NCBI GenBank assembly: GCA_902385655.1
Contig: CABMGO010000006.1
Coordinates: forward strand, 78,499-142,498
Origin: an uncultured archaeon
GTDB taxonomy: Archaea; Nanobdellota; Nanobdellia; Pacearchaeales; GW2011-AR1
DNA length: 64,000 bases
Direction: 5' to 3'
The notes beneath the pieces are model-generated. The model made no database searches, was not told the origin of the DNA, and worked only from the letters and a program-made list of their open reading frames with translations. The position numbers and the translations under genes were made by a program. Shown here one piece after another: positions 1,204 through 58,412 of the stretch; the first letter of the stretch is position 1, and the number at the start of each line of letters is the position of its first letter.

Positions 1204-1610
1204 TGTGTTTTCTCCTTCTGCTCCGCAGAGCTGACACCATTTGGTGCAGTTTTACCTCTAATCTTCTTTGTTACAATAAAATGAATTATCTTGCTTAATG
1301 GTCTGCATTCTGAAATTTGTATCCAATCTCCGACATGAACTTCTTCTTTCAAACAGTCTGGTAATCTTGCATGAAGTTTTGTTCTTCTTCTATCAAACCT
1401 TTCATATTTGCTAATGTAACTAACTCTATCAAATTGGATTTTAACTCTTCCAGGAAGTTTATTGATAACTTCTCCTTCGAATGTTCTTCCTCTAAGTTTG
1501 ACAGCTTCTCTTCCGTGAAATGGACAGAATTTATCTGCACAGTTACCACTAGTTTTGCTTTCTTCCTTCTTTGTTGTTTTTATTTTTTCTACCATTTTAT
1601 TTTCGTTCAC
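1200..1610 (-). CDS. rps17: 30S ribosomal protein uS17
   Basis: CxDxxCPFHG motif followed by LRGRTFEGEV and ISECRPLSK. Operon position fits. Confidence 0.9.
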   Translation of the reverse strand: MNENKMVEKIKTTKKEESKTSGNCADKFCPFHGREAVKLRGRTFEGEVINKLPGRVKIQFDRVSYISKYERFDRRRTKLHARLPDCLKEEVHVGDWIQISECRPLSKIIHFIVTKKIRGKTAPNGVSSAEQKEKTQ

Positions 1611-2112: not shown

Positions 2113-2787
2113 TTATTTCTTTACTTTTTTAGTTGATTTAATTTCTGATTTTGCTTTTTCATCTAAAATATTTTTCTTTATCTGTCCTATTAAATCTTCT
2201 GTAATCGAAATTTCTTCAGGAGTAATTACATTTGGTGCAAGGATTGAAACTTTTATTCCAATAACTCCTTGTTTATCTGCACCGACGCTTTCAGCATAAC
2301 TAACATTGTTAGATTCGTCTCCAGTTTTTCTTAAATAACCATATTTGAATCTCCATGTCTTAGCTCTCTCGCTTGGAAGTCTTCCAGACATTACAAGTTC
2401 AGCCCCTAATGCGCCAGCGCCCTTGATTTTCATCAATGCTTTGTAAGCAACTGCTTTGAATCTCATTGAACCAAATCTTTCAATTGCTAAAGCAATATCA
2501 TCAGCAACTAATTGTGCATCTAATCCTGGCTTAGCAATTTCTGCAATATCTACATGAGGATTTTCCATCTTGAATCTTTTCTTTAAAGTTTCAGTTAATT
2601 TTTCAATTGTTTCTCCCTTTTTACCGATAATCAAACCTGGTTTGTGGGTGGAGATAATAACTTTTTCACCGACGGGAGTATACTCTACTTTTACAGAAGA
2701 AACTTTACCCTTACCAAATTCTCTCTTGATAAACTCTTTAACTCCGTATTCTTCTTTTCTTATTCCAACAAATTTTCTTTCTTCCAT
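2113..2787 (-). CDS. rps3: 30S ribosomal protein uS3
   Basis: KH domain (GLIIGKKGETIEKL) and the uS3 C-domain (GAELVMSGRLPSERAKTWRFKYG). Confidence 0.92.
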   Translation of the reverse strand: MEERKFVGIRKEEYGVKEFIKREFGKGKVSSVKVEYTPVGEKVIISTHKPGLIIGKKGETIEKLTETLKKRFKMENPHVDIAEIAKPGLDAQLVADDIALAIERFGSMRFKAVAYKALMKIKGAGALGAELVMSGRLPSERAKTWRFKYGYLRKTGDESNNVSYAESVGADKQGVIGIKVSILAPNVITPEEISITEDLIGQIKKNILDEKAKSEIKSTKKVKK

Positions 2788-2788
2788 T

Positions 2789-3379
2789 TTATTTTTTTCC
2801 TCCGTACATTCTAGCTTCTAAATGAACATGAGTTCTCTTTCCTTTTCTTCCTTCTCTTTTATAAGGTCTTGAAGCAATATTAGACATAGCGATTGTTATT
2901 TGAGGATTTTCAATTCCATTAACTTCACAGTTTGCTTTTAATTGCTTTACTAACCCGATAAATTCTTTTGTAGCATTCATAGGGAATCTACCGCTTCCGC
3001 CTGCTGTGTGTGGGATTAATGCTCTTCTTCTGTGAGGAATTTCAGCTCCGATCATTGGAACAGCAAGTTTTTTCTGTAATACTAACTCTAACATTTCCAA
3101 AGCTCTTGTAATGCTTTTCCTTCTAATCATTCTACAGATTGCAACAGATTGTTTTGTACTTATTGCCGCAGAAATTAAATTTGCAACAGCAACTTCTTTT
3201 TTGACTTTTTCAACTTTCACCGCAGGTGACTGGACCGACTTGCTCGGTTCTGCAACTTTTGGTTTTTCAGTTTTAGCTTCAACGGATTCTGTTTTTGTTT
3301 CAGCAGGAGCTACTTCTGTCTTTACTTCCTCGACTTTCTTTGCTTTTTTTGCTTTTGGTGCGTTTGTTTGTTCTACCAT
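2789..3379 (-). CDS. rpl22: 50S ribosomal protein uL22 with a ~60-aa Lys/Glu/Ala/Val/Pro-rich N-terminal extension
   Basis: The C-terminal 135 aa have the uL22 pattern (ISTKQSVAICRMIRRKSITRALEMLE..PHRRR..GRFP). The first ~60 aa are low complexity. Confidence 0.88.
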   Translation of the reverse strand: MVEQTNAPKAKKAKKVEEVKTEVAPAETKTESVEAKTEKPKVAEPSKSVQSPAVKVEKVKKEVAVANLISAAISTKQSVAICRMIRRKSITRALEMLELVLQKKLAVPMIGAEIPHRRRALIPHTAGGSGRFPMNATKEFIGLVKQLKANCEVNGIENPQITIAMSNIASRPYKREGRKGKRTHVHLEARMYGGKK

Positions 3380-14733: not shown

Positions 14734-14835
14734 ACGCCCGGATCCTGCTCACATTTTGCATTTCGCAAATAAATTTCTAAAAAACAGTTTTGCTCAAAGC
14801 GAAATGTTCAAATCGAACTGTTCGATTCTGAAGGA
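14734..14835 (-). repeat. tRNA-trailer cassette (family 1) downstream of tRNA-Ser, ending in a 12-nt re-copy of the tRNA 3' end
   Basis: ACGCCCGGATCC at 14835-14846 recurs at 14734-14745. Between the copies (tRNA sense): hairpin TTCAGAATCGA/TCGATTTGAA, then the core TTCGCTTTGAGCAAA..TTTGCGAAATGCAAAATGTGAGCAG. Confidence 0.85.
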
Positions 14836-14970
14836 CGCCCGGATCCAGAATCGAACTGGAAAAACCTTGCGGTAACCGGTTTGCTTGAGTTCTCGACGAA
14901 CGAGAGCATTGAAAATCGCCGAAGCGATTTACTGTTCAAGACCGGCGCAGTACCATTGTGCCATCCGGGC
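14836..14970 (-). tRNA. tRNA-Ser(UGA) with a 53-nt intron at the canonical 37/38 position (intron 14882-14934)
   Basis: Hand fold: acceptor GCCCGGA/TCCGGGC, 3-bp D stem, anticodon stem CCGGT/ACCGG, loop CTTGAA|A, long variable arm ACC-GCAA-GGT, T arm TCCAG-TTCGATT-CTGGA. The intron 3' end TCAAG pairs with CTTGA of the anticodon loop. Confidence 0.85.
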
Positions 14971-22973: not shown

Positions 22974-23702
22974 ATGGTAACAGTTCAAAAAAATGACTTT
23001 ATTGAATTAGAATTTACTGGAATTGTCAAAGACACTCAGGAAATTTTCGATACTACGAATAAGGACGAAGCAAAAAAAATTGGTATGCAGAACCCTGAAA
23101 AGGTAAAACCTGCAATGCTTTCGGTAGGTAATAGTATGACAGTAAAAGGGCTTGATGCTGACTTATCCGGAAAAGAAGTTGGAAAAGAATATTCTATCGA
23201 ACTAAAAGCAGAAGATGCATTTGGAAAGAGAAATCCTTCAATGGTCAAAATGATTCCATTAAAACTTTTCTTAGAGCAAAGAATTATGCCTGAGAAGGGA
23301 ATGCAACTTTCTCTTGATGGGATGGTTGTAAAAATTGTCTCTGTTTCAGGCGGAAGAGTTTTAGTAGATTTCAATAATCCTCTTTCGGGAAAAACAATTA
23401 TCTACAAATACAAAATCTCAAGAAAGCTTGAAGACCAAAAGGAAAAAATTAATGCACTTCAAGACTTTTTCTTCAGAAAAACTTTTGATTTCGAAGTCAA
23501 AGAAAAAGATTTAATCATGAAAGTTGATAAGAACATGCAGAAGTTTGTTGAGATGATGGCAAAGCCATTTGAAGAAATTCTCGGATTAAAAGTTAAGGTC
23601 GAAGTTTTCGCTTCGACACAAAGTTCAAAAGTCGGAGATGCAAAAGCTGAGCAAGAGATAGTCGAAAAGAAAGAAGAGAAAAAAGAAGAAGCGAAAAAAT
23701 AA
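22974..23702 (+). CDS. FKBP-type peptidyl-prolyl isomerase (long archaeal form)
   Basis: FIELEFTGIVKDTQEIFDTT start, an IF-flap-like insert, LVDFNNPLSGK, and a C-terminal helical domain. Confidence 0.75.
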   Translation: MVTVQKNDFIELEFTGIVKDTQEIFDTTNKDEAKKIGMQNPEKVKPAMLSVGNSMTVKGLDADLSGKEVGKEYSIELKAEDAFGKRNPSMVKMIPLKLFLEQRIMPEKGMQLSLDGMVVKIVSVSGGRVLVDFNNPLSGKTIIYKYKISRKLEDQKEKINALQDFFFRKTFDFEVKEKDLIMKVDKNMQKFVEMMAKPFEEILGLKVKVEVFASTQSSKVGDAKAEQEIVEKKEEKKEEAKK

Positions 23703-25937: not shown

Positions 25938-26642
25938 ATGGCAACAATAAAACTTTTGGTTGATGGTGGCGCAATGAAGCCAGGACCAGCAATAGCTCAG
26001 CAGTTGGGCCCAATGGGAATTAATATTGGTAAAGTAATCTCCGAAGTAAATACTGCAACTTCTATGTTCAAGGGAATGCAAGTTCCAGTTAATTTGGACG
26101 TTGATGCAAAAACAAAATCATTTACTGTTAAAGTCTTAACACCTTCTGTTTCAGCGTTAATAAAAAAAGAAGCTGGAATTGAATTGGCTTCTGGCGAAAG
26201 AAAAAAATACCAGGTCGGAAATATTTCTATAGAGCAACTTATCTCTGTAACAAATCAAAAGTTTTCATCTATGTTAGCTAAAGACTTCAGAAGTGCATTA
26301 AAATCTGTAATTGGTAGTTGCATGACTATGGGTATTTTAATTGAATCTCAAGATCCAAAAGAATTTTTACAAAACTTAGAAGCAGGCAAATATGATAAAG
26401 AAATTAAAGCTAAAAAAACAGACACTGATCCAAAGAAATTGAAAGAATTAAAGGAATACTTCCAACAAGTTCAAACTAAGCAACAGGCAGCTAAGAAAGC
26501 TGAAGAAGAAGCTAAAGCAGCTGAAGAAGCAGCTAAAGCAGCAGCAGCTACAGCTAAACCTGCAGAAGGCGCAGCAGCAGCTACACCAGCAGCAGCTACA
26601 CCAGCAGCTACAGCAAAACCAGCTGCAGCAGCAAAGAAGTAA
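25938..26642 (+). CDS. rpl11: 50S ribosomal protein uL11 with a ~75-aa Ala/Lys/Glu/Pro-rich C-terminal extension
   Basis: GGAMKPGPAIAQQLGPMGINI uL11 N-domain. The low-complexity tail runs from about aa 157 to 234. Confidence 0.9.
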   Translation: MATIKLLVDGGAMKPGPAIAQQLGPMGINIGKVISEVNTATSMFKGMQVPVNLDVDAKTKSFTVKVLTPSVSALIKKEAGIELASGERKKYQVGNISIEQLISVTNQKFSSMLAKDFRSALKSVIGSCMTMGILIESQDPKEFLQNLEAGKYDKEIKAKKTDTDPKKLKELKEYFQQVQTKQQAAKKAEEEAKAAEEAAKAAAATAKPAEGAAAATPAAATPAATAKPAAAAKK

Positions 26643-26674: not shown

Positions 26675-26745
26675 GGGGGTATGGGGTAGTGGTAGCCTAC
26701 GAGGTTTGGGACTTCGTGATCTCGGTTCGATCCCGAGTACCCCCA
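26675..26745 (+). tRNA. tRNA-Pro(UGG)
   Basis: Hand fold: acceptor GGGGGTA/TACCCCC, anticodon stem CGAGG/CTTCG, loop TTTGGGA, T arm CTCGG-TTCGATC-CCGAG, discriminator A. No encoded CCA. Confidence 0.9.
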
Positions 26746-26864
26746 TTTAGCCAAAAGAAGTCGGCGATCGAACACTCGATCCTGAGCAAAACGCTTCGAG
26801 CAGACAAACTGAAAAGTTTATAACTGCGAGATGTATTTTGTGAACAGAGTACCCCCATTTAGCC
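26746..26864 (+). repeat. tRNA-trailer cassette (family 1) downstream of tRNA-Pro, ending in an 18-nt re-copy of the tRNA 3' end
   Basis: GAGTACCCCCATTTAGCC at 26735-26752 recurs at 26847-26864. Internal hairpin GATCGA-ACAC-TCGATC, then the core ACGCTTCGAGCAG..CTGCGAGATGTATTTTGTGAACAG. Confidence 0.9.
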
Positions 26865-26902
26865 GACGGAAATAAACAAAAACACAAAAACACAAAAACA
26901 CA

Positions 26903-27118
26903 ATGGCAGTAAAAAAGAAAAAAATCGGAGCAGCAGGCCGTCTTGGCGCTGGCTATGGAAAACCAAAAGAAAGATTAAATGTAGTGGAACAAAAGCAAAG
27001 AGTTAAGCAAGTTTGCCCTTTCTGCGGTAAGACTGCAAAGAGAAAAGCTAAAGGAGTTTGGAATTGTAAGAAATGTGGTAAAATCTTTACAGGAGGCACA
27101 TTTTACTTACAAGCTTAA
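26903..27118 (+). CDS. rpl37ae: 50S ribosomal protein eL43 (L37Ae)
   Basis: GAAGRLGAGYG plus a CPFCG..CKKCG zinc ribbon. Confidence 0.9.
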   Translation: MAVKKKKIGAAGRLGAGYGKPKERLNVVEQKQRVKQVCPFCGKTAKRKAKGVWNCKKCGKIFTGGTFYLQA

Positions 27119-28879: not shown

Positions 28880-30538
28880 ATGTTAAACACAAACAAGTTC
28901 ATCCTCGGAATTTTAGCAGTTTTACTTGCATTTAGTTTTGCTAGTGCAATGAATGTTTCAACAACTTCTTTAGCGTTAACTGTTAATAATGGCTCTTCAA
29001 GTTCAACTTCATTTACAATCACAAATAACGAAACAGACTTAATTTCAATTTCTATAGGAACAATAACTGGCCTTGGAACATTGACAACTTCTGTTTCAAA
29101 TTCTAGCTTCAATTTATCTGCTGGAGAAAATAAGACAATCACTGTAAATATTACTGCTCCCTCTGCTCAAACAAATAATACTTTTTATGGTAACCTTCCA
29201 ATAACATCTAACGGTTCAAATCCTTCTCTTAATTTAAATTTAACAGTAAATGCTATACAAGTTTTACCAACTCCAGTAATTACTTCTTCAAATTTTTGTA
29301 AATCTGGAAATCAAGGAAATAATCTTTCAATAACAGACTTTAGTATAAATAACAAAGGAGAAGGGGATGACAATGATTGGTACTTAATGGATCAAGTTAA
29401 TATTGATGTAGAAGTCACAAACAACATGGATAAGAGAGCTAATAATGTAGAGGCTGAAATTGGGATATTCTCTGGAGGCGAAGATGTCACAAGTGATTTT
29501 AGTTTTGAAGATAAAAGAATAAGCTTAGGAAGTATTGGTTCAGATAATTCTAAGACTGCAACTTTCACAATCAAGAGTTTACCCGTGGATCTTAACGAGG
29601 GAAGTTACACAATACGTGTAAAAACATATATCTCTGGAAATGAAAATACTGTTTGCGATTCAACATCTGATTCAACAGATGTGACTAATCCCTTCGGTGA
29701 AGGAGTTATTGTAGCAAATGAGGTAGTTGGTACTACTGTTGAAGCTTCTGCCGGAAATGTTTTAGATCAGATAAGCATGGATGCAGTAAATCTTGGATCC
29801 TCTAAAGAAGAAGAGGTTTTAGTAAACATTTACAATAAGGAATTAGGGATAAATCAAAATTATCATCTAAGTAACTTAAGAGCAGGAAGTTCAGAACTTA
29901 TTTATTTCCCAGCTATTGACATTCCAGCCACTGCAATCTCAAAAACATACAAAGTAGACGTAACCACTTACTATAACTATAATGATGGAGATACTACTGA
30001 AGCAGACTCATATGATCAAAATTCTTACGATGATTTAGAAGACAATTATAACACTTTCTCATTTAATATAAAGGTTATCAATGGCCAAACACCAGTTGAT
30101 CCTTCAAGACCAACATTAACTGCAAAGTTAGATAATGACGCAGTGGTAGGTAAACCAATGAATATAACTCTCTCTTTAAAGAACAATGGAGCAGCAAGCA
30201 TGGCTACACTAGTTAGTGTCCAAGATTATGACTCTTGGTCTACATTAGACTCATTAACTCCTTCGACTTTGTTAATCGCGAAGGGTGATACAAAAACAGT
30301 GGTATTAACTCTTGTTCCAACAAAAGACGGACAACAAACATTCAAGATTAATGTTTTATACGATGGAAAAACAATCAGCCAAGATGTAGCAGTTAATGTT
30401 GCAAAGAAAACAGGATTCCTTTCCTCAGTATTTGGTGAAGCTAATTCAACTAGTTACTTGATCACAGGAATTGTAATTCTTGTAGCTCTTATTGTTGTAG
30501 TTCTAGTAGTGAAATTAATTAAGTCCAGAAAGGAATAA
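28880..30538 (+). CDS. secreted, heavily N-glycosylation-sequon-rich surface protein with a C-terminal TM anchor
   Basis: Signal peptide (ILGILAVLLAFSFASA), many N-x-S/T sequons, and a C-terminal TM helix plus KSRKE. The TATA box GTTTATAAAGG lies about 30 nt upstream. Confidence 0.8.
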   Translation: MLNTNKFILGILAVLLAFSFASAMNVSTTSLALTVNNGSSSSTSFTITNNETDLISISIGTITGLGTLTTSVSNSSFNLSAGENKTITVNITAPSAQTNNTFYGNLPITSNGSNPSLNLNLTVNAIQVLPTPVITSSNFCKSGNQGNNLSITDFSINNKGEGDDNDWYLMDQVNIDVEVTNNMDKRANNVEAEIGIFSGGEDVTSDFSFEDKRISLGSIGSDNSKTATFTIKSLPVDLNEGSYTIRVKTYISGNENTVCDSTSDSTDVTNPFGEGVIVANEVVGTTVEASAGNVLDQISMDAVNLGSSKEEEVLVNIYNKELGINQNYHLSNLRAGSSELIYFPAIDIPATAISKTYKVDVTTYYNYNDGDTTEADSYDQNSYDDLEDNYNTFSFNIKVINGQTPVDPSRPTLTAKLDNDAVVGKPMNITLSLKNNGAASMATLVSVQDYDSWSTLDSLTPSTLLIAKGDTKTVVLTLVPTKDGQQTFKINVLYDGKTISQDVAVNVAKKTGFLSSVFGEANSTSYLITGIVILVALIVVVLVVKLIKSRKE

Positions 30539-33080: not shown

Positions 33081-33133
33081 AAAAAAGAAAAAAGGGCAAA
33101 GTTCTATTTGTTATTTAAGCGGTGATAGAAAAT

Positions 33134-33200
33134 TTTTCGCTTTGAGCAAATTTACTTTTATTTTAATATTTGCGAAATGCAAAAAATTTTGAAGTTGCAG
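33134..33200 (+). repeat. family 1 core, solo copy (no tRNA attached)
   Basis: TTTTCGCTTTGAGCAAAT..ATTTGCGAAATGCAAAAAATTTTGAAGTTGCAG. Confidence 0.8.
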
Positions 33201-33269
33201 GTCTGCAACTGCGTTTTCTTAGTTACGTGGCTTTTTGCCCAGCTAGTAACTAAAAATCAAAGAAAAAGA

Positions 33270-33304
33270 TAAAAATAAAAAAAAGAAAAAAGGGCAAAAA
33301 GCCC
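33270..33304 (-). terminator. hairpin plus T-run downstream of the S-layer gene
   Basis: The minus strand reads GGGC-TTTTT-GCCC followed by TTTTTTCTTTTTTTT, 12 nt after the stop codon. Confidence 0.65.
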
Positions 33305-33315
33305 TAATTGTTTGT

Positions 33316-35604
33316 TTAAGCTGTGATAGCAGTTGCAGTTGTAGCAGATGTTACTTTCAACTTAGATCCAACAGTAGCATTTACGTTGTTATTAGACAAG
33401 TAAGTTATAGCCTTTGTTGTATCTTCAGCATTGAAACCAGCGACAAGTAAAGCAGTTTTACCGCTTCTTGCGAAAGATTCAATTAAAGCTTCACCGGATT
33501 TGATTCCAGTAGCAGCTGTGAAAGCATCGCCACATAGAGCACCACCAAGTAATTCAGCAGCAACAGTATTTACGCAAGAACCGCCGATAACGACTAAATT
33601 CTTACCAGACGCAGAGGAAACCTCATTGTCATAAACTGTCATTACACCAACACTTGATGCTGATGTACCTGAAGTAACTGTAGCACCTGGAGCTGTTACG
33701 AATACATTTGCATATACTTCGCCTCCATGGTATGTTACTGTAGCAGAACCTTGAGCAGCACTAGGATCGTTTAAAACAACCTTAGTAGCTAACTTGCTAG
33801 AGACATAACCTTCGTAGTCATCTGAGTCTTGTATTCTTAATGTAGGAACACTTACTGCAGAAACATCTGTCTTATTTTCACTATCGATTGAGCTTACTTT
33901 TGTAGTAGCAGTGAAAGAACCGCCTTGAGCAATCTTTCCATCCTCGTTAGCTTCATTGAAGACAAGAGCGAAGTTGTCAGTGTCAACAATATCTGTTGTA
34001 GGTAATGTAATCTTCATACCCTTTGGAGTATATACTGTACTGAAGTTTGTTTTTGTGGAGTCAGCAGTTAAGTTTACCCATCTGTTTGTAGATGTAGCAT
34101 TAACGTCTGATACTGTTAAAACAGTATTTCCAACTTTACAAGTTCTTCCAGCAATTACATCTGTACAAATGTCATTTCCTGTAATTTCATTTGTGATAGT
34201 TACAGAATCAGCATCATTTGAATCAAATCCTGTTGTTGCAGAAAGTAAATAAGTTTCAGCCTCGGAACTTGAGTTCCAAGAAACTACAAACCATTTATTC
34301 TTTGCACTTTCATTGTAAACTAAGTTTGTATCTGTAGAAGTTACTAATACATTATTAGCATCCTTTCCAAGACCCAAAATAGTTCCATTGGATTGATTTA
34401 TGTAGTATAAGTCAAGACTCATAGCACCATCTTTTATTGGAGCTTCAAGTTTGATCTTTTCTCTACCATCAACATTTACTTTTGTTACTTCTTGAGCAGG
34501 CATTGTTATGTCTGCCATTTGAAGATTTACATTTCCAAATAAAGGAACAGTTAAGTTTCCTTGTTCTGGAGTAACGAAAGTATCTTTGTCAACTTTCCAT
34601 GTGAATCCGAATGAGTTCAGAGTAGTTCCAAGGTCAACATTTGCAACCAAGTTTCTCTCTGTATTCTTATCATTGGATTTTACATTTTGTCCGTCTCTAA
34701 GTTCTATTTTACCAGTACCAATACTAAATTCAACTTTGTTAGCGTCCTTTTCTCTAGTAGCTTTGATAACTTCCTTAACACCTATATAACCTCCATCAGA
34801 AAGTTTATATGTGTCTCCTTTTGCAAGGGCCTCAGTTGTTTCTCCGTTGATTACCAACTTAGCAACATCTTCGTTTGAAGAAGTGTATACACTACTTATA
34901 GAAACTTCGTAACTCTTACCACCTGCAGTTAATGTAACTGCACCTCCGTCTGCATCAGTTGCTGTTGCACTTGAAGCAGAATCTAGAAGCACGATTTTAT
35001 TAGCGTCATAGTCAAGGATATAATATGGTTTACCCATCATTGTAATTTCCTTGTCTTTGATTGTGCTATTATTTGGGGCAGTATTGAAACTTAAAGAATA
35101 TGTCATAACTTCATCTCCAGAATTCAAGAAGAATCCCAAAGCTGGTGTGTCTGACTTGTATCCATTATCGCTAAAGTGAGTAAAGTTTAAGTTATCACTT
35201 AAGTCAATAGTTTGTTGATAGTTATATTCTTTATTATCTTTTCCCTTGAAGACTTGATCTGCTAAAAGGTTTGTCAATTCATCTTTCGATAAAGCGATTC
35301 CCATAACAGTCGCAGCTCCTTGGTTTAAGTTGAATTTCTGAGAAGCTCTCTCTATTTTTACAGAATCTCCTCCTGTAACAGTAGCTGTTGTAGCAGCTGT
35401 AGCTGTAGCAGGTGCAAGATTTGCAGTTAAGTCTATTGCAGCTTTCAAATCACTTGAAGCAGCCTTTTGGCCAACAACAAGAGCAACGCCTCCGTCTGTA
35501 AAAGAAGAAGGTGTGAAACTAGCAGCAGCTGCAAAAGCAGCTGTAGAACCTAACATTAAAGCGCTTCCTAATACTGTAGCAACTTTTTTGTAATTAATTT
35601 TCAT
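33316..35604 (-). CDS. S-layer protein (Methanococcales-type N- and C-terminal S-layer domains)
   Basis: Signal peptide, N-terminal GGVALVVGQKAASSDLKAAIDL and C-terminal KNLVVIGGSCVNTVAAELLG..ALLVAGFNAEDTTKA. Strong GGAGGT sits 10 nt before the ATG. Long leader and strong terminator. Confidence 0.8.
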   Translation of the reverse strand: MKINYKKVATVLGSALMLGSTAAFAAAASFTPSSFTDGGVALVVGQKAASSDLKAAIDLTANLAPATATAATTATVTGGDSVKIERASQKFNLNQGAATVMGIALSKDELTNLLADQVFKGKDNKEYNYQQTIDLSDNLNFTHFSDNGYKSDTPALGFFLNSGDEVMTYSLSFNTAPNNSTIKDKEITMMGKPYYILDYDANKIVLLDSASSATATDADGGAVTLTAGGKSYEVSISSVYTSSNEDVAKLVINGETTEALAKGDTYKLSDGGYIGVKEVIKATREKDANKVEFSIGTGKIELRDGQNVKSNDKNTERNLVANVDLGTTLNSFGFTWKVDKDTFVTPEQGNLTVPLFGNVNLQMADITMPAQEVTKVNVDGREKIKLEAPIKDGAMSLDLYYINQSNGTILGLGKDANNVLVTSTDTNLVYNESAKNKWFVVSWNSSSEAETYLLSATTGFDSNDADSVTITNEITGNDICTDVIAGRTCKVGNTVLTVSDVNATSTNRWVNLTADSTKTNFSTVYTPKGMKITLPTTDIVDTDNFALVFNEANEDGKIAQGGSFTATTKVSSIDSENKTDVSAVSVPTLRIQDSDDYEGYVSSKLATKVVLNDPSAAQGSATVTYHGGEVYANVFVTAPGATVTSGTSASSVGVMTVYDNEVSSASGKNLVVIGGSCVNTVAAELLGGALCGDAFTAATGIKSGEALIESFARSGKTALLVAGFNAEDTTKAITYLSNNNVNATVGSKLKVTSATTATAITA

Positions 35605-46021: not shown

Positions 46022-47463
<1,442 letters not shown>

Positions 47464-47530: not shown

Positions 47531-47610
47531 TTGTATATTTATTTCGTCGATGAAGAAATATCATCGATTAAAAATTCCTGTGCAAGAGGAAGACTCGGCA
47601 CAGAAAAACT

Positions 47611-47681
47611 GGGCCTGTAGTCTAGTAGTAAAATACCTCCCTTGCACGGAGGGGTCTCGGGTGCGATTCCCGACAGGTCCA
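47611..47681 (+). tRNA. tRNA-Ala(UGC) in the 16S-23S spacer
   Basis: Acceptor GGGCCTG/CAGGTCC with G3:U70, anticodon stem CCTCC/GGAGG, loop CTTGCAC, and T arm CTCGG-GTGCGATT-CCCGA region. The D arm is AT-rich and weak. Confidence 0.85.
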
Positions 47682-47797
47682 TTTTGCTACGTCGGGAGAG
47701 CACATGCGATTCCGAAAAATTCGCTTCGAGCAAAAACAAAAGTAAAACAAAATTTACTTTTTTGCGAGATGCAAATTTTGAGCAGACAGGTCCATTT
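47682..47797 (+). repeat. tRNA-trailer cassette (family 1) downstream of tRNA-Ala, ending in a 13-nt re-copy of the tRNA 3' end
   Basis: GACAGGTCCATTT at 47672-47684 recurs at 47785-47797. It has the T-arm-like hairpin TCGGGA..TTCCGA containing TGCGATTCC, then the core TTCGCTTCGAGCAAAAA..TTTTTTGCGAGATGCAAATTTTGAGCAG. Confidence 0.9.
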
Positions 47798-47839
47798 CCG
47801 ACGAGAAATGGAAAATCACAAATCACACTCACTAAAAAA

Positions 47840-47918
47840 ATTTCGCTTCGAGCGGAACAAGATAACTAAAAATTATCTTCCGCGAAATGCAAAATTTTTT
47901 CTAAAATGAGAGAGCAAG
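47840..47918 (+). repeat. family 1 core, solo copy in the ITS
   Basis: ATTTCGCTTCGAGCGGAAC..TCTTCCGCGAAATGCAAAATTTTTTC, followed by the hairpin AGAGCA-AGAAA-TGCTCT. Confidence 0.8.
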
Positions 47919-48093: not shown

Positions 48094-48184
48094 TTTATAA
48101 GAAATTATCGTTTCCCACACATATAGTGTGTGGAGGAAGAAGAAAGAAGATTAAGATCTGTTTTATTTTTATAATAAAACAACT

Positions 48185-50985
<2,801 letters not shown>

Positions 50986-51001
50986 TTAAACTTCAATCTT
51001 C

Positions 51002-52448: not shown

Positions 52449-52547
52449 ATAAAAATAGAGAAGAAACACGACTTAAAAATGTTTTGTTTTTGGAATTTTT
52501 TCAGCAAAACCAAGAGTTTAAAAATGATTTTTATATAAGATTTTTAT

Positions 52548-52619
52548 GGGTTCGTAGCTCATTGGGAGAGCGTCCGACTGAAGCTCGGTAGGTAGGGAGT
52601 TCGATTCTCCCCGAGCCCA
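52548..52619 (+). tRNA. tRNA-Phe(GAA)
   Basis: Acceptor GGGTTCG/CGAGCCC, D arm GCTC-ATTGGGA-GAGC, anticodon loop CTGAAGC, and T arm GGGAG-TTCGATT-CTCCC. The TATA box GTTTAAAAATG lies about 25 nt upstream. Confidence 0.9.
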
Positions 52620-52734
52620 TTTTCTTGAATCGAACGACCGTAGTAGGGAGCGAAAATTTTACACCGAGAAATTCTTATTTCATTTATTTAATTTAGAGAT
52701 GTGAAATTTGAGTAGATTCTCCCCGAGCCCATTT
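52620..52734 (+). repeat. tRNA-trailer cassette (family 1, divergent) downstream of tRNA-Phe, ending in a 20-nt re-copy of the tRNA 3' end
   Basis: GATTCTCCCCGAGCCCATTT at 52603-52622 recurs at 52715-52734. GAATCGAAC (52627-52635) is antisense to the T loop GTTCGATTC. Core: CACCGAGAAATT..AATTTAGAGATGTGAAATTTGAGTAG. Confidence 0.85.
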
Positions 52735-57749: not shown

Positions 57750-58412
57750 TTGAAAGTACATGACGAGCAATTCGCTTTGAAGAACAAAATGGAAGAAAAA
57801 AATAAATCTGAAATGCAAATTGCGAGAGAATTTGTATATTACTCTCAAAATGCAGTAACCTCTGGAAATATGATCAAAGACGATCTTATGAAAGCTGGAA
57901 GAATGGACATTGCTATAAATGTTTTAATTTCTGCATTTTTTCTTTCGCATGATGTAAGGAAGGATGTAAAATTGCACTTAATTTTTGAAGGACCTCCAAC
58001 CCCTCCTGTTCACATTTTGATTGAGTATGATGAAGACCTTGCGATTTCGAAAAAAGACGTTGCAGGGTTAATAAAAAGAATTTTGTATAAATGTCCTTCT
58101 GAAAAAGGCAAAACTGTTAAAGCTTTTCCCGGATGTTTTGTAGAAAAAAAATCTTTCGAAGCATTAGTGGATGAATTAGACAAGTCTGGAAAAAATGTTT
58201 TTCTTCTAGATAAGAAAGGAACAGACATCCGAGATCTAAAATTGAATGGAAATGAAGTTTTTGTGCTAGGTGACCAAGATGGTTTTCCCGACAGCAAGAG
58301 GCATCTTTTAAAAAGAATAGACAAAATTACCGTTTCACCTAAAATGCTTTTTGCTTCCCAAGTTTTAACAATAGTACATAATGAAATCGATAGAAAAGAG
58401 ATTTCGCAATAA
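57750..58412 (+). CDS. trmY: tRNA (pseudouridine54-N1)-methyltransferase TrmY (SPOUT, DUF358)
   Basis: REFVYYSQNAVTSG..GRMDIAINVLISAFFLSHDVRKD resembles archaeal TrmY. The true start is probably an internal Met. Confidence 0.65.
   Translation: MKVHDEQFALKNKMEEKNKSEMQIAREFVYYSQNAVTSGNMIKDDLMKAGRMDIAINVLISAFFLSHDVRKDVKLHLIFEGPPTPPVHILIEYDEDLAISKKDVAGLIKRILYKCPSEKGKTVKAFPGCFVEKKSFEALVDELDKSGKNVFLLDKKGTDIRDLKLNGNEVFVLGDQDGFPDSKRHLLKRIDKITVSPKMLFASQVLTIVHNEIDRKEISQ

Follow-up and report, generated by a model that had tools for sequence, protein, structure and literature searches.

A hairpin element and a repeated tRNA end behind tRNA-Pro

The window, as the whole 64,000-nucleotide (nt) stretch of contig CABMGO010000006.1 is called here, is a low-GC archaeal chromosome segment with an rRNA operon and housekeeping genes. 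Its tRNA-Pro(TGG) gene is followed by a short hairpin-forming sequence, hereafter element E, and then by an exact second copy of 18 nt from the end of the tRNA gene. This arrangement had been pointed out in an earlier reading of the letters by a model (the original prediction). We report a computational analysis of E, of the tRNA-derived sequences that surround it, and of related copies on other archaeal contigs. The features of the tRNA-Pro locus are as follows.

26675-26745, plus strand: tRNA-Pro(TGG), the intact host gene (ARAGORN; Rfam tRNA model, 60.1 bits)
26735-26752, plus strand: R1, the first copy of the 18-nt repeat GAGTACCCCCATTTAGCC
26761-26773, plus strand: anti, which repeats the T-loop region of tRNA-Pro as its reverse complement (TCGGCGATCGAAC), found by local alignment to the reverse-complemented 3' part of the tRNA
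26776-26782, plus strand: S', a short sense copy of T loop and T stem (TCGATCC) that abuts E
26782-26846, plus strand: the hairpin E (covariance model, 58.1 bits, E-value 2.9e-14), which is the predicted core stretched to its true ends
26847-26864, plus strand: R2, the exact second copy of GAGTACCCCCATTTAGCC, which runs on into the downstream chromosome
start at 26903: the eL43 gene, downstream of R2

From the terminal part of the T stem, R1 continues through the 3' acceptor strand and the discriminator into 7 nt of trailer. The match ends at 18 nt, with no extension on either side, and its second copy lies 112 nt downstream, exactly as described in the original prediction. By simple arithmetic, an exact 18-mer is expected to recur within 150 nt at a frequency of ∼2e-9 per site. 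The sequence between the repeats is only about 95 nt long and contains no open reading frame (ORF). Within it, the anti segment covers the insertion site of E, contains no E itself, and makes the palindrome GATCGA/TCGATC with S'. The minimum-energy fold predicted for E at this locus is the covariation-supported hairpin described below (z = −2.5).

The stretch between R1 and E had been described as a degenerate echo of the T arm (GATCGA-ACAC-TCGATC). These letters are indeed present, but they are better read as a reverse-complement copy of the T loop followed by a short sense copy. An inverted repeat said to bracket the cassette (GTCGGC at 26760-26765 and GCCGAC at 26862-26867) is likewise present, and a similar pair occurs at tRNA-Ala. 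However, it is not a feature of the family, and the left arm merely belongs to the reverse-complement copy of the T arm.

Two minor features adjoin this locus. A short tandem repeat (AAAAACAC, three times) occupies 26871-26902, between the cassette and the eL43 start codon, and the ORF directly upstream of tRNA-Pro (25938-26642) encodes a long, low-complexity C-terminal tail rich in Ala, Lys, and Pro (…AAKAAAATAKPAEGAAAATPAAATPAATAKPAAAAKK).

The same order of parts is found at three other tRNA genes of the window.

14734-14970, minus strand: tRNA-Ser(TGA) locus (E, 69.9 bits), with tRNA ∼14970-14836, R1 14846-14835, anti 14830-14820, S' 14820-14811, E 14811-14746, and R2 14745-14734
47610-47797, plus strand: tRNA-Ala(TGC) and cassette in the 16S-23S spacer (E, 70.7 bits), with tRNA 47610-47682, R1 47672-47684, anti 47691-47697, S' 47705-47712, E 47712-47784, and R2 47785-47797
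52547-52734, plus strand: tRNA-Phe(GAA) and cassette with a divergent, family-B-like hairpin (21.9 bits), with tRNA 52547-52620, R1 52603-52622, anti 52627-52635, S' 52643-52650, E-like hairpin 52650-52714, and R2 52715-52734

Repeat lengths of 12, 13, and 20 nt and spacings of 101, 113, and 112 nt, for Ser, Ala, and Phe, respectively, agree in every case with those given in the original prediction; the Ser repeat lies at 14835-14846 and 14734-14745 on the minus strand. The tRNA-Ser(TGA) gene (∼14836-14970) carries a 53-nt intron at the canonical 37/38 position and for this reason is overlooked by ARAGORN in its default run, whereas the intron mode of the program labels the gene tRNA-Ala(TGC) and misplaces the intron. 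The core behind tRNA-Phe is divergent, scoring 21.9 bits compared to 58-71 bits at the other three tRNA loci. The claim that four of four tRNA genes carry this layout holds for the window, but it cannot be generalized, since many tRNA genes on related contigs are free of any cassette.

Element E is a long imperfect hairpin

A covariance model of the core was built, as had been proposed with the original prediction, and it identifies eight copies of E in the window. Alignment of 96 non-redundant copies yields the consensus 5'-C GA RCAATT C GC U UY GA GC-[variable loop]-GC GA RA U GC A AATTGY GA G YA-3'. The unit is 65-95 nt in length, with conserved arms and a loop that varies freely. Conservation disappears outside the unit, and the flank profile places its end ∼12 nt past the hairpin.

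E forms one long imperfect hairpin with pairing in 94.9% of the alignment cells and compensatory changes at 11 of 16 pairs. None of 500 shuffled controls paired as well, and partners that were slid against each other were only 22-55% paired. Two tandem G·A/A·G motifs, one C·A mismatch, and one U·U mismatch are near-invariant; mismatches are symmetric, and there are no 3-nt bulges. Summed over five pairs of the lower stem, G·U combinations outnumber A·C combinations by 33 to 8. This excess points to the consensus strand as the one that folds, as either single-stranded DNA or RNA. The minimum-energy folds predicted for the copies in the window reproduce this hairpin.

Searches against Rfam, both at the gathering threshold and at an E-value ≤10, match only tRNA and rRNA and leave E without a match. 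Several known motifs were considered and rejected. A hammerhead-like core is suggested by a GA-helix-GAAA arrangement, but E lacks the CUGA box, and its Y-R covariation is at odds with such a core. The consensus carries neither the RUGAUGA and CUGA boxes nor the ACA box of guide RNAs, its tandem G·A pairs lack the 3-nt bulge of a k-turn, and its match to the tRNA is sense rather than antisense; together with the negative Rfam result, these features speak against a k-turn or a C/D or H/ACA guide small RNA. The RYYYAAC/GTTRRRY motifs of an integron attC site also are missing. Finally, CGA at the 5' end of E does not derive from T-loop positions C56-G57-A58, since it is also found where the T loop reads TTCAAAT.

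At least two further hairpin families use the same scaffold. Their members occur on contigs that we designate L078, L124, L131, and L213 and at window positions 52650-52714, and on contigs L152, L175, and L226. One such family has the tail ...TTTAGAGTGAAGTTTGAGTAG and another has the motif CGAG.TTTAGGTCT..GAC. The family-B tail TTTAGAGTGAAGTTTGAGTAG of the hairpin behind tRNA-Phe in the window recurs in L078 and L124. Separate hairpin families may be nested or in tandem at a single tRNA.

Distribution of E beyond the window

A scan of metagenome contigs with the E pattern yielded 112 contigs. An earlier, looser scan of species-representative genomes gave at least 120 matches, most of them chance matches in bacteria, and five useful contigs from archaeal metagenome-assembled genomes (MAGs; L078, L090, L097, L099, and L100), which are labeled Woesearchaeota, Pacearchaeota, Nanoarchaeota, or simply “archaeon.” In total, 138 instances of E were collected, of which 119 are unique. 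Nearly half of the unique copies (51 of 119) lie 29-70 nt downstream of a tRNA gene on the same strand, and another 13 are downstream of a tRNA but inverted. The tRNA-linked copies represent 26 anticodons and 17 amino-acid types. Most copies are intergenic. Many of the remaining ones are the second or third cassettes of arrays or are located beside tRNAs that ARAGORN overlooks. E also is found at the ends of protein genes and within ORFs, so the association with tRNA is not exclusive. Collections of viral contigs, phages, and plasmids contain no match to the full element or to its single arms.

These data establish a recurrent family that is aimed mainly at tRNA genes, in agreement with the original prediction. 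The family is spread through DPANN archaea of the Woesearchaeales/Pacearchaeales type and apparently is undescribed: the prediction had named no known element with this layout, and our search of the literature likewise found no published description of E or its layout. Because the same architecture is found again in over 100 independent contigs, which come from many samples and assemblers and have their own locus-specific repeats, the chance that it reflects faulty or chimeric assembly, or a spurious local duplication, is negligible. Nothing specific favors such an artifact beyond the fact that short repeats can be mis-assembled.

A stereotyped layout with defined insertion points

When read in the orientation of the tRNA, each locus consists of the intact tRNA gene, its natural trailer (0-18 nt, median about 5), anti, S', E in either orientation, and R2. 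The anti segment is a reverse-complement copy of tRNA sequence, ∼12-16 nt long, that extends across the insertion site with no E inside. After a turn of 0-2 nt it is followed by S', an 8-9-nt sense copy with which it forms a palindrome. Both segments are present in nearly all of the 51 same-strand tRNA loci. A perfect palindrome arm of at least 5 nt is found in 23 of these 51, compared to 3% of random positions, and anti and E are separated by 8-9 nt in 14 of the 27 loci compared. Filler bases are common between the end of the duplication and anti. Cassette-free tRNAs have no anti segment, which therefore is not a normal feature of tRNA trailers. The original prediction had described this region as a left arm specific to the host tRNA; it is not a recognition arm of E but a fold-back made of reverse-complement and sense copies of the target without E.

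R2 is a copy of the sequence from the insertion point to just past the end of the tRNA. Among the independent tRNA-adjacent E copies from other assemblies, 44 of 51 share the arrangement and have a perfect second copy that is 9 nt or longer (median 19 nt). Repeat lengths range from 9 to >40 nt, and at most loci the duplication ends 0-9 nt beyond the end of the gene. The variable length thus has a simple basis. Although the tRNA 3' end as such had been proposed as the target, E is aimed at an internal point, and the duplicated length is the distance from there to just past the gene end. Surviving copies consist of a tandem duplication of the target in which E resides in the non-functional copy, and the two copies meet in a fold-back of the E-free target.

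Two insertion points predominate. E is inserted in the T loop between positions 56 and 57 (...GTTC|R) at ∼19 loci and at positions 62-66 (YYC|G) at ∼17 loci, whereas rarer sites lie further upstream, in the anticodon arm or at position 26/27. The target has pyrimidines before and a purine after the insertion point. Since 1-3 of the target pyrimidines are lost at the left junction and the tail of E is variable (GAG plus 0-3 nt), the junctions are inexact. Mirror layouts are found where E entered the 5' half of a gene, as at position 26/27 of tRNA-Cys in L188 and L206. They are also seen at a pseudo-tRNA-Cys with E in its anticodon loop (L097, L202, L210, and L216) and at the window copy that starts at 33128.

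The T loop and the anticodon loop are the classic sublocations used by integrases in tRNA genes. Each cassette could in principle be a miniature integrative element served by a tyrosine recombinase encoded elsewhere, in which the repeats are attL and attR blocks that extend from the crossover in the T loop or anticodon loop to the tRNA end, as in archaeal viruses and islands. The direct repeats do begin at the insertion point and stop shortly beyond the tRNA, and they resemble those of the island PYG1, whose insertion in a tRNA-Gln gene is flanked by 44-bp repeats (PMC9897764). In integrative elements of this type, as at E loci, a complete and a partial copy of the tRNA 3' end surround the insert, and the complete copy is functional (PMC9897764). 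However, these elements are 9-23 kb in size, carry an integrase, and use one att site each (PMC9897764), whereas E loci are ∼100 bp, have no integrase, and involve 17 or more tRNA types, the repeat matching the particular tRNA in each case, so that a separate attP would be needed for every type. Imprecise junctions with small deletions, an inverted target copy that is foreign to att sites, one unhealed insertion without a repeat (described below), and the lack of matches in the viral, phage, and plasmid collections add to these difficulties. We consider this explanation very unlikely, and the earlier conclusion that the repeats are no ordinary att pair is borne out by element size, the number of targets, and the unhealed insertion.

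The position of E relative to the intact gene also bears on the proposal that it is a non-canonical tRNA intron. According to this proposal, the gene would extend from the 5' part of the tRNA to the second copy, and a DPANN endonuclease of broad specificity would splice out the sequence between the copies. Minimum-energy folds of the Ala, Phe, and Ser loci do pair the 5' acceptor strand with the second copy, and endonucleases of the DPANN type cut relaxed motifs at non-canonical positions (PMC3239211). However, the first copy already completes a full cloverleaf, and the second copy decays. In a crude geometric test, bulge-helix-bulge (BHB) geometry suitable for splicing from copy 1 to copy 2 was found at 12 of 44 loci and equally at 12 of 44 shuffled controls. 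Moreover, E can be inverted, can occur in arrays, and can be situated in DNA unrelated to tRNA. Splicing is thus an extremely unlikely explanation, and the original prediction had dismissed a BHB intron with reason, given the intact upstream cloverleaf and the inverted copies.

Evidence for the probable mobility of E

Numerous tRNA genes located on the same contigs are devoid of both E and anti. Among near-identical tRNA-His genes, one is empty (L129), two carry E in the sense orientation (L183 and L190), and two carry it inverted (L100 and L144). At all 13 loci with an inverted E, the host-derived scaffold is unchanged. A comparison with cassette-free tRNA loci had been suggested with the original prediction, and it was fruitful insofar as many such loci, including the empty tRNA-His gene, were found.

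Cassettes also accumulate in arrays. Three cassettes of two hairpin families follow one another in L078, and two hairpins are nested end to end in L124. In L160 (oriented 2680-3200), tRNA-Trp is followed by three perfect 117-nt units and a fourth unit that lacks the hairpin, where GGGGGTT-TGAGC-CCTCC is left; this fourth unit may be the footprint of an excision or deletion. L208 and L211 differ by one array unit, and an array or copy-number difference is seen in L221 as well. The distal re-copy is perfect in 41 of 50 loci, and in about 9-12 of 50 it is mutated or truncated (e.g., L078, L099, and L221).

Another case is presented by two tRNA-Thr(GGT) paralogs with near-identical promoters that are located 800 nt apart in L126 (9604-9860). 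Paralog 1 has no cassette and is intact. Paralog 2 carries an older, healed family-B cassette and a newer E directly in the T loop (GCGGG|E|GATCC, with TTT lost). The newer insertion has no new duplication, and the gene is inactivated.

Some copies are associated with protein genes. In L163, E lies between two 50-nt copies of a gene end. The E of L226 (oriented 1351-1395, minus strand) adjoins the final codons of eL43 and provides the stop codon (…TTT TAT CTC GAG TGA); the eL43 ortholog in the window ends in ...FYLQA*. Cassette-free sites, both orientations, arrays, decay of the distal copy, the unhealed insertion, and the copies at gene ends and in ORFs place the predicted “miniature integrative or retro-type element” close to the data.

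The same observations bear on the possibility that E is a functional RNA. E could be a structured small RNA produced by read-through from the tRNA, like the dicistronic tRNA-small RNA units, with the fold-back and the acceptor copy serving in processing, stability, or targeting and the layout being kept by selection and gene conversion. This would fit the fact that 80% of the tRNA-linked copies are co-oriented with the tRNA, as are seven of the eight copies in the window with the adjacent gene. Strand-specific structure (an excess of G·U over A·C pairs and the invariant tandem G·A motifs), stable predicted folds, conservation of an rRNA-spacer copy in four contigs, and the exact re-copy in 41 of 50 loci would be understandable as well. 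However, an RNA-level role does not account for the 13 loci at which the same scaffold holds an inverted E, and the palindromic junction has a spacer of 0-2 nt, which is too short for an RNA hairpin loop. A re-copy that is decayed or truncated in about a fifth of the loci is a further difficulty, as are the many tRNAs on the same contigs that lack a cassette. Likewise, E copies reside within ORFs and directly in a T loop, tandem arrays mix E families, and Rfam provides no match even at the permissive threshold. Cassette-bearing tRNAs are usually followed by a run of T residues, which is a likely archaeal terminator. A co-transcribed trailer RNA is therefore an unlikely explanation, and the suggestion in the original prediction that the end of such an RNA is defined by an acceptor-strand mimic is weakened by the inverted copies and by the decay of the re-copies.

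A proposed model for insertion and healing

With moderate confidence, we favor the explanation that E is a widespread family of hairpin-shaped, non-autonomous mobile DNAs of ∼65-95 nt that insert in DPANN tRNA genes, where the tRNA is kept intact by a duplicated 3' end. E would insert as DNA into regions of tRNA genes that form stem-loops and, occasionally, into the ends of protein genes. A bare insertion would destroy the tRNA. Persisting copies would be those in which a tandem duplication reaches from ∼12 nt before the insertion point to a few nucleotides past the gene end, such that E lies in the distal copy while the upstream copy serves as the working tRNA. Because persisting loci duplicate the target segment with E in the distal copy, the 18-nt re-copy behind tRNA-Pro would be nothing other than the 3' end of the E-bearing, non-functional copy. 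What had appeared as a T-arm echo would be the junction between the copies, formed by a snap-back reverse complement of the E-free target with its hairpin turn 8-9 nt from E.

Judging from the strand-specific structure and from the inverted copy that lacks E, the element may enter one strand only. It might move in single-stranded form, as DNA of the HUH/IS200-IS91/REPIN type or as RNA followed by reverse transcription. Two origins of the duplication are conceivable, repair by fold-back or templated insertion and synthesis with strand displacement; selection would then retain the loci with an intact gene. Displacement synthesis from a nicked target, for example, could rebuild the gene end. A pure strand-displacement model tied to the polarity of E predicts a single layout and was rejected, since both layouts are found. 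The occurrence of both layouts relative to E polarity, together with the unhealed insertion, indicates that healing is at least partly separable from insertion.

If the intermediate were RNA, then E would be a retro-type element. Its RNA, transcribed with the tRNA, would be reverse transcribed, and target-primed reverse transcription or template switching would generate variable duplications, imprecise junctions, and inverted pieces. This route is a variant of the favored explanation with another intermediate. Direct repeats of 9 to >40 nt, imprecise junctions with filler between the duplication and the inverted piece, strand-specific structure with G·U pairs, and an orientation bias toward the direction of transcription are all compatible with it. 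However, the duplications are not scattered but tied to gene ends, the inverted piece reproduces target sequence and not the element, both layouts relative to E polarity occur, and a 3' tail, poly(A) or other, is missing. Genomic trailer, but no CCA, is part of the duplicated tRNA end; therefore, the mature tRNA was not the template. The window ORFs that were scanned have no Pfam match to a reverse transcriptase. We judge this route to be quite unlikely. A retroviral-type use of the tRNA 3' end as a primer-binding site was also rejected, because the copy is in the sense orientation, with the genomic trailer and without CCA.

Several observations weigh against the mobile DNA explanation. The near-minimal duplications look more programmed than would be predicted from random repair followed by selection. 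The 51:13 bias toward the orientation of the tRNA, the tolerance of E for G·U pairs along with its invariant G·A motifs, and the retention of the spacer copy in four rRNA operons each could reflect a role at the RNA level, either instead of mobility or alongside it. No mobilizing enzyme or autonomous partner was found in the 64-kb window or in the loci of up to 15 kb. Specifically, a Pfam scan of 50 window ORFs revealed no transposase, integrase, reverse transcriptase, or Cas1, with 16 of these ORFs lacking any Pfam match. Likewise, the fetched loci contain no long E with arms more than 120 nt apart, and viral contigs contain no match to the arms. No truly isogenic pair of filled and empty sites is present among the fetched loci, and the genes downstream of the tRNA-His examples differ. 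Finally, the loci were collected with E's own pattern, so the frequencies reported here are biased.

As a more specific possibility, E might be a single-strand hairpin transposon of a new type, with the near-universal GTTC|R of T loops and stem-loops at other gene ends as its homing sites and with an insertion pathway that itself regenerates the target. In such a “self-healing” process, programmed strand displacement or fold-back would copy the sequence from the insertion point to the gene end, and the host tRNA would never be lost. We regard this more specific proposal as tentative and somewhat doubtful. In a bolder variant, E and the abutting tRNA copy may act as a scaffold and guide RNA for a trans-acting enzyme.

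The order of intact copy, snap-back, 8-9 nt, element, and re-copy would record how an essential gene survived an insertion, and it would reveal either an archaeal fold-back or templated-insertion repair pathway or a target-regenerating transposition chemistry. If E routinely lies behind tRNAs of Woesearchaeales/Pacearchaeales-type DPANN archaea, then tRNA fragments, odd trailers, and mis-called tRNAs in MAGs could be explained. The presence or absence of E and the length of its arrays could serve as markers for population genetics at the strain level. E would also illustrate how small mobile DNA reshapes gene ends in very reduced genomes, as with the eL43 stop codon, new N- or C-terminal codons, and the copies in rRNA spacers. 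A preference for GTTC|R in T loops would offer a universal safe-harbor logic of biotechnological interest.

Comparison with known systems

E fits the general features of small hairpin mobile DNA, whereas its choice of target and its duplication-inversion signature are unusual. Its nearest known counterparts are REPINs, MITEs (miniature transposable elements with inverted repeats) and foldback elements, derivatives of HUH single-strand transposons, and islands that integrate in tRNA genes and leave partial tRNA copies behind. The REPINs and REP sequences mobilized by RAYT transposases in bacteria provide one comparison (PMC3116915). Like E, REPINs are non-autonomous units of ∼100 nt with two inverted arms that form a long imperfect hairpin, and they occur in many copies per genome, mostly extragenic, with conserved mismatches, strand-specific folding, and no adjacent transposase. 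Unlike REPINs, E resides in DPANN archaea, strongly prefers tRNA stem-loops, and has no RAYT match by Pfam among the window ORFs. The GTAG/CGTC tag of REP sequences is also absent from E, in which only the 3' tail is similar (GAG-YAG) and the 5' side reads C-GA-RCAATT. We know of no REPINs that are accompanied by long target duplications with an inverted junction.

Single-strand transposons of the IS200/IS605 type are exemplified by IS608 and ISDra2 (PMC6006769). In these elements and in IS91, hairpins are recognized on one strand, as would also be the case for E. They insert beside a short specific sequence and produce no classical target-site duplication, and the unhealed E insertion in L126 likewise has none. 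However, E has a single hairpin in place of separate left and right ends, its insertion sites lack 1-3 bases of the target, and some sites differ. No TnpA/TnpB or Y2 transposase gene was found in our data. The commonest E target, GTTC|, is presumably identical to one of the target tetranucleotides of IS91. The healed duplication-inversion layout is, to our knowledge, without precedent in the IS200/IS605 and IS91 families.

[quoted passage not shown] The target-site duplication of a MITE has a fixed, short length set by the transposase, whereas the E repeat varies from 9 to >40 nt and stops where the gene does. Neither the fetched loci nor viral contigs yielded a parent transposon whose ends match those of E. 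Casposons use a Cas1 casposase and create target-site duplications of 14-15 bp; the variable repeat length of E and the lack of a Cas1 Pfam match in the window do not fit this type.

Transposition of tRNA introns in Thermoproteales was reportedly described by Fujishima et al. in 2010, with related short sequences at different tRNA positions that include the T arm. Those introns are spliced at BHB motifs and interrupt the only copy of the gene, whereas E is located in a pseudo-copy beside an intact gene and can be inverted.

The junctions themselves have parallels in DNA repair. Snap-back templated insertions and fold-back inversions are products of eukaryotic Pol-theta repair and of palindrome-induced breaks. 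Like the junctions at E loci, snap-back insertions involve a short reverse-complement copy from within ∼15 nt, a hairpin turn, and filler bases. We are not aware of any demonstration of such insertions in archaea or of their occurrence as a regular companion of a transposon.

Other copies of E and neighboring genes in the window

Away from the four tRNA cassettes, the window contains the following copies and rRNA genes.

23599-23653, plus strand: E-derived sequence in the C-terminal tail of the FKBP-type gene 22974-23702 (40.8 bits, E-value 3e-9)
33081-33329, plus strand: copy in mirror layout outside any tRNA gene (E, 60.4 bits)
46022-47463: 16S rRNA
47834-47902, plus strand: second rRNA-spacer copy of E, a subtype with an A/T stem (57.3 bits)
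48176-50990: 23S rRNA
57763-57828, plus strand: decayed E at the RNA-methyltransferase gene 57750-58412, whose 5' end and first codons it overlaps (55.1 bits)

The copy at 47834-47902 has no flanking re-copy, and an E occurs at the same position between tRNA-Ala and 23S in contigs L155, L161, and L166. This spacer copy may be fixed or domesticated, for instance for rRNA processing. The copies at 23599-23653 and 57763-57828 look as though they have been exapted into gene ends; in the latter, the ATG falls in the former loop of E.

The mirror layout at 33081-33329 involves a minus-strand protein gene (33316-35604). The 3' end of this gene, together with the terminator region, is present as a degenerate copy at 33081-33128 and as the intact copy at 33279-33329. 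E extends from 33128 to 33192 and is followed by a short sense-plus-antisense fold-back, TTGCAG-GT-CTGCAACTGC, at ∼33194-33213. The GC-skew profile of the window tracks gene strand only and has no bearing on a replication-strand bias of E.

The gene 33316-35604 (minus strand) and another at 28880-30538 encode large proteins that are secreted or S-layer-like, with weak Pfam matches or none. Other genes in the window encode ribosomal proteins, FtsZ/SepF, the proteasome, and an aminoacyl-tRNA synthetase.

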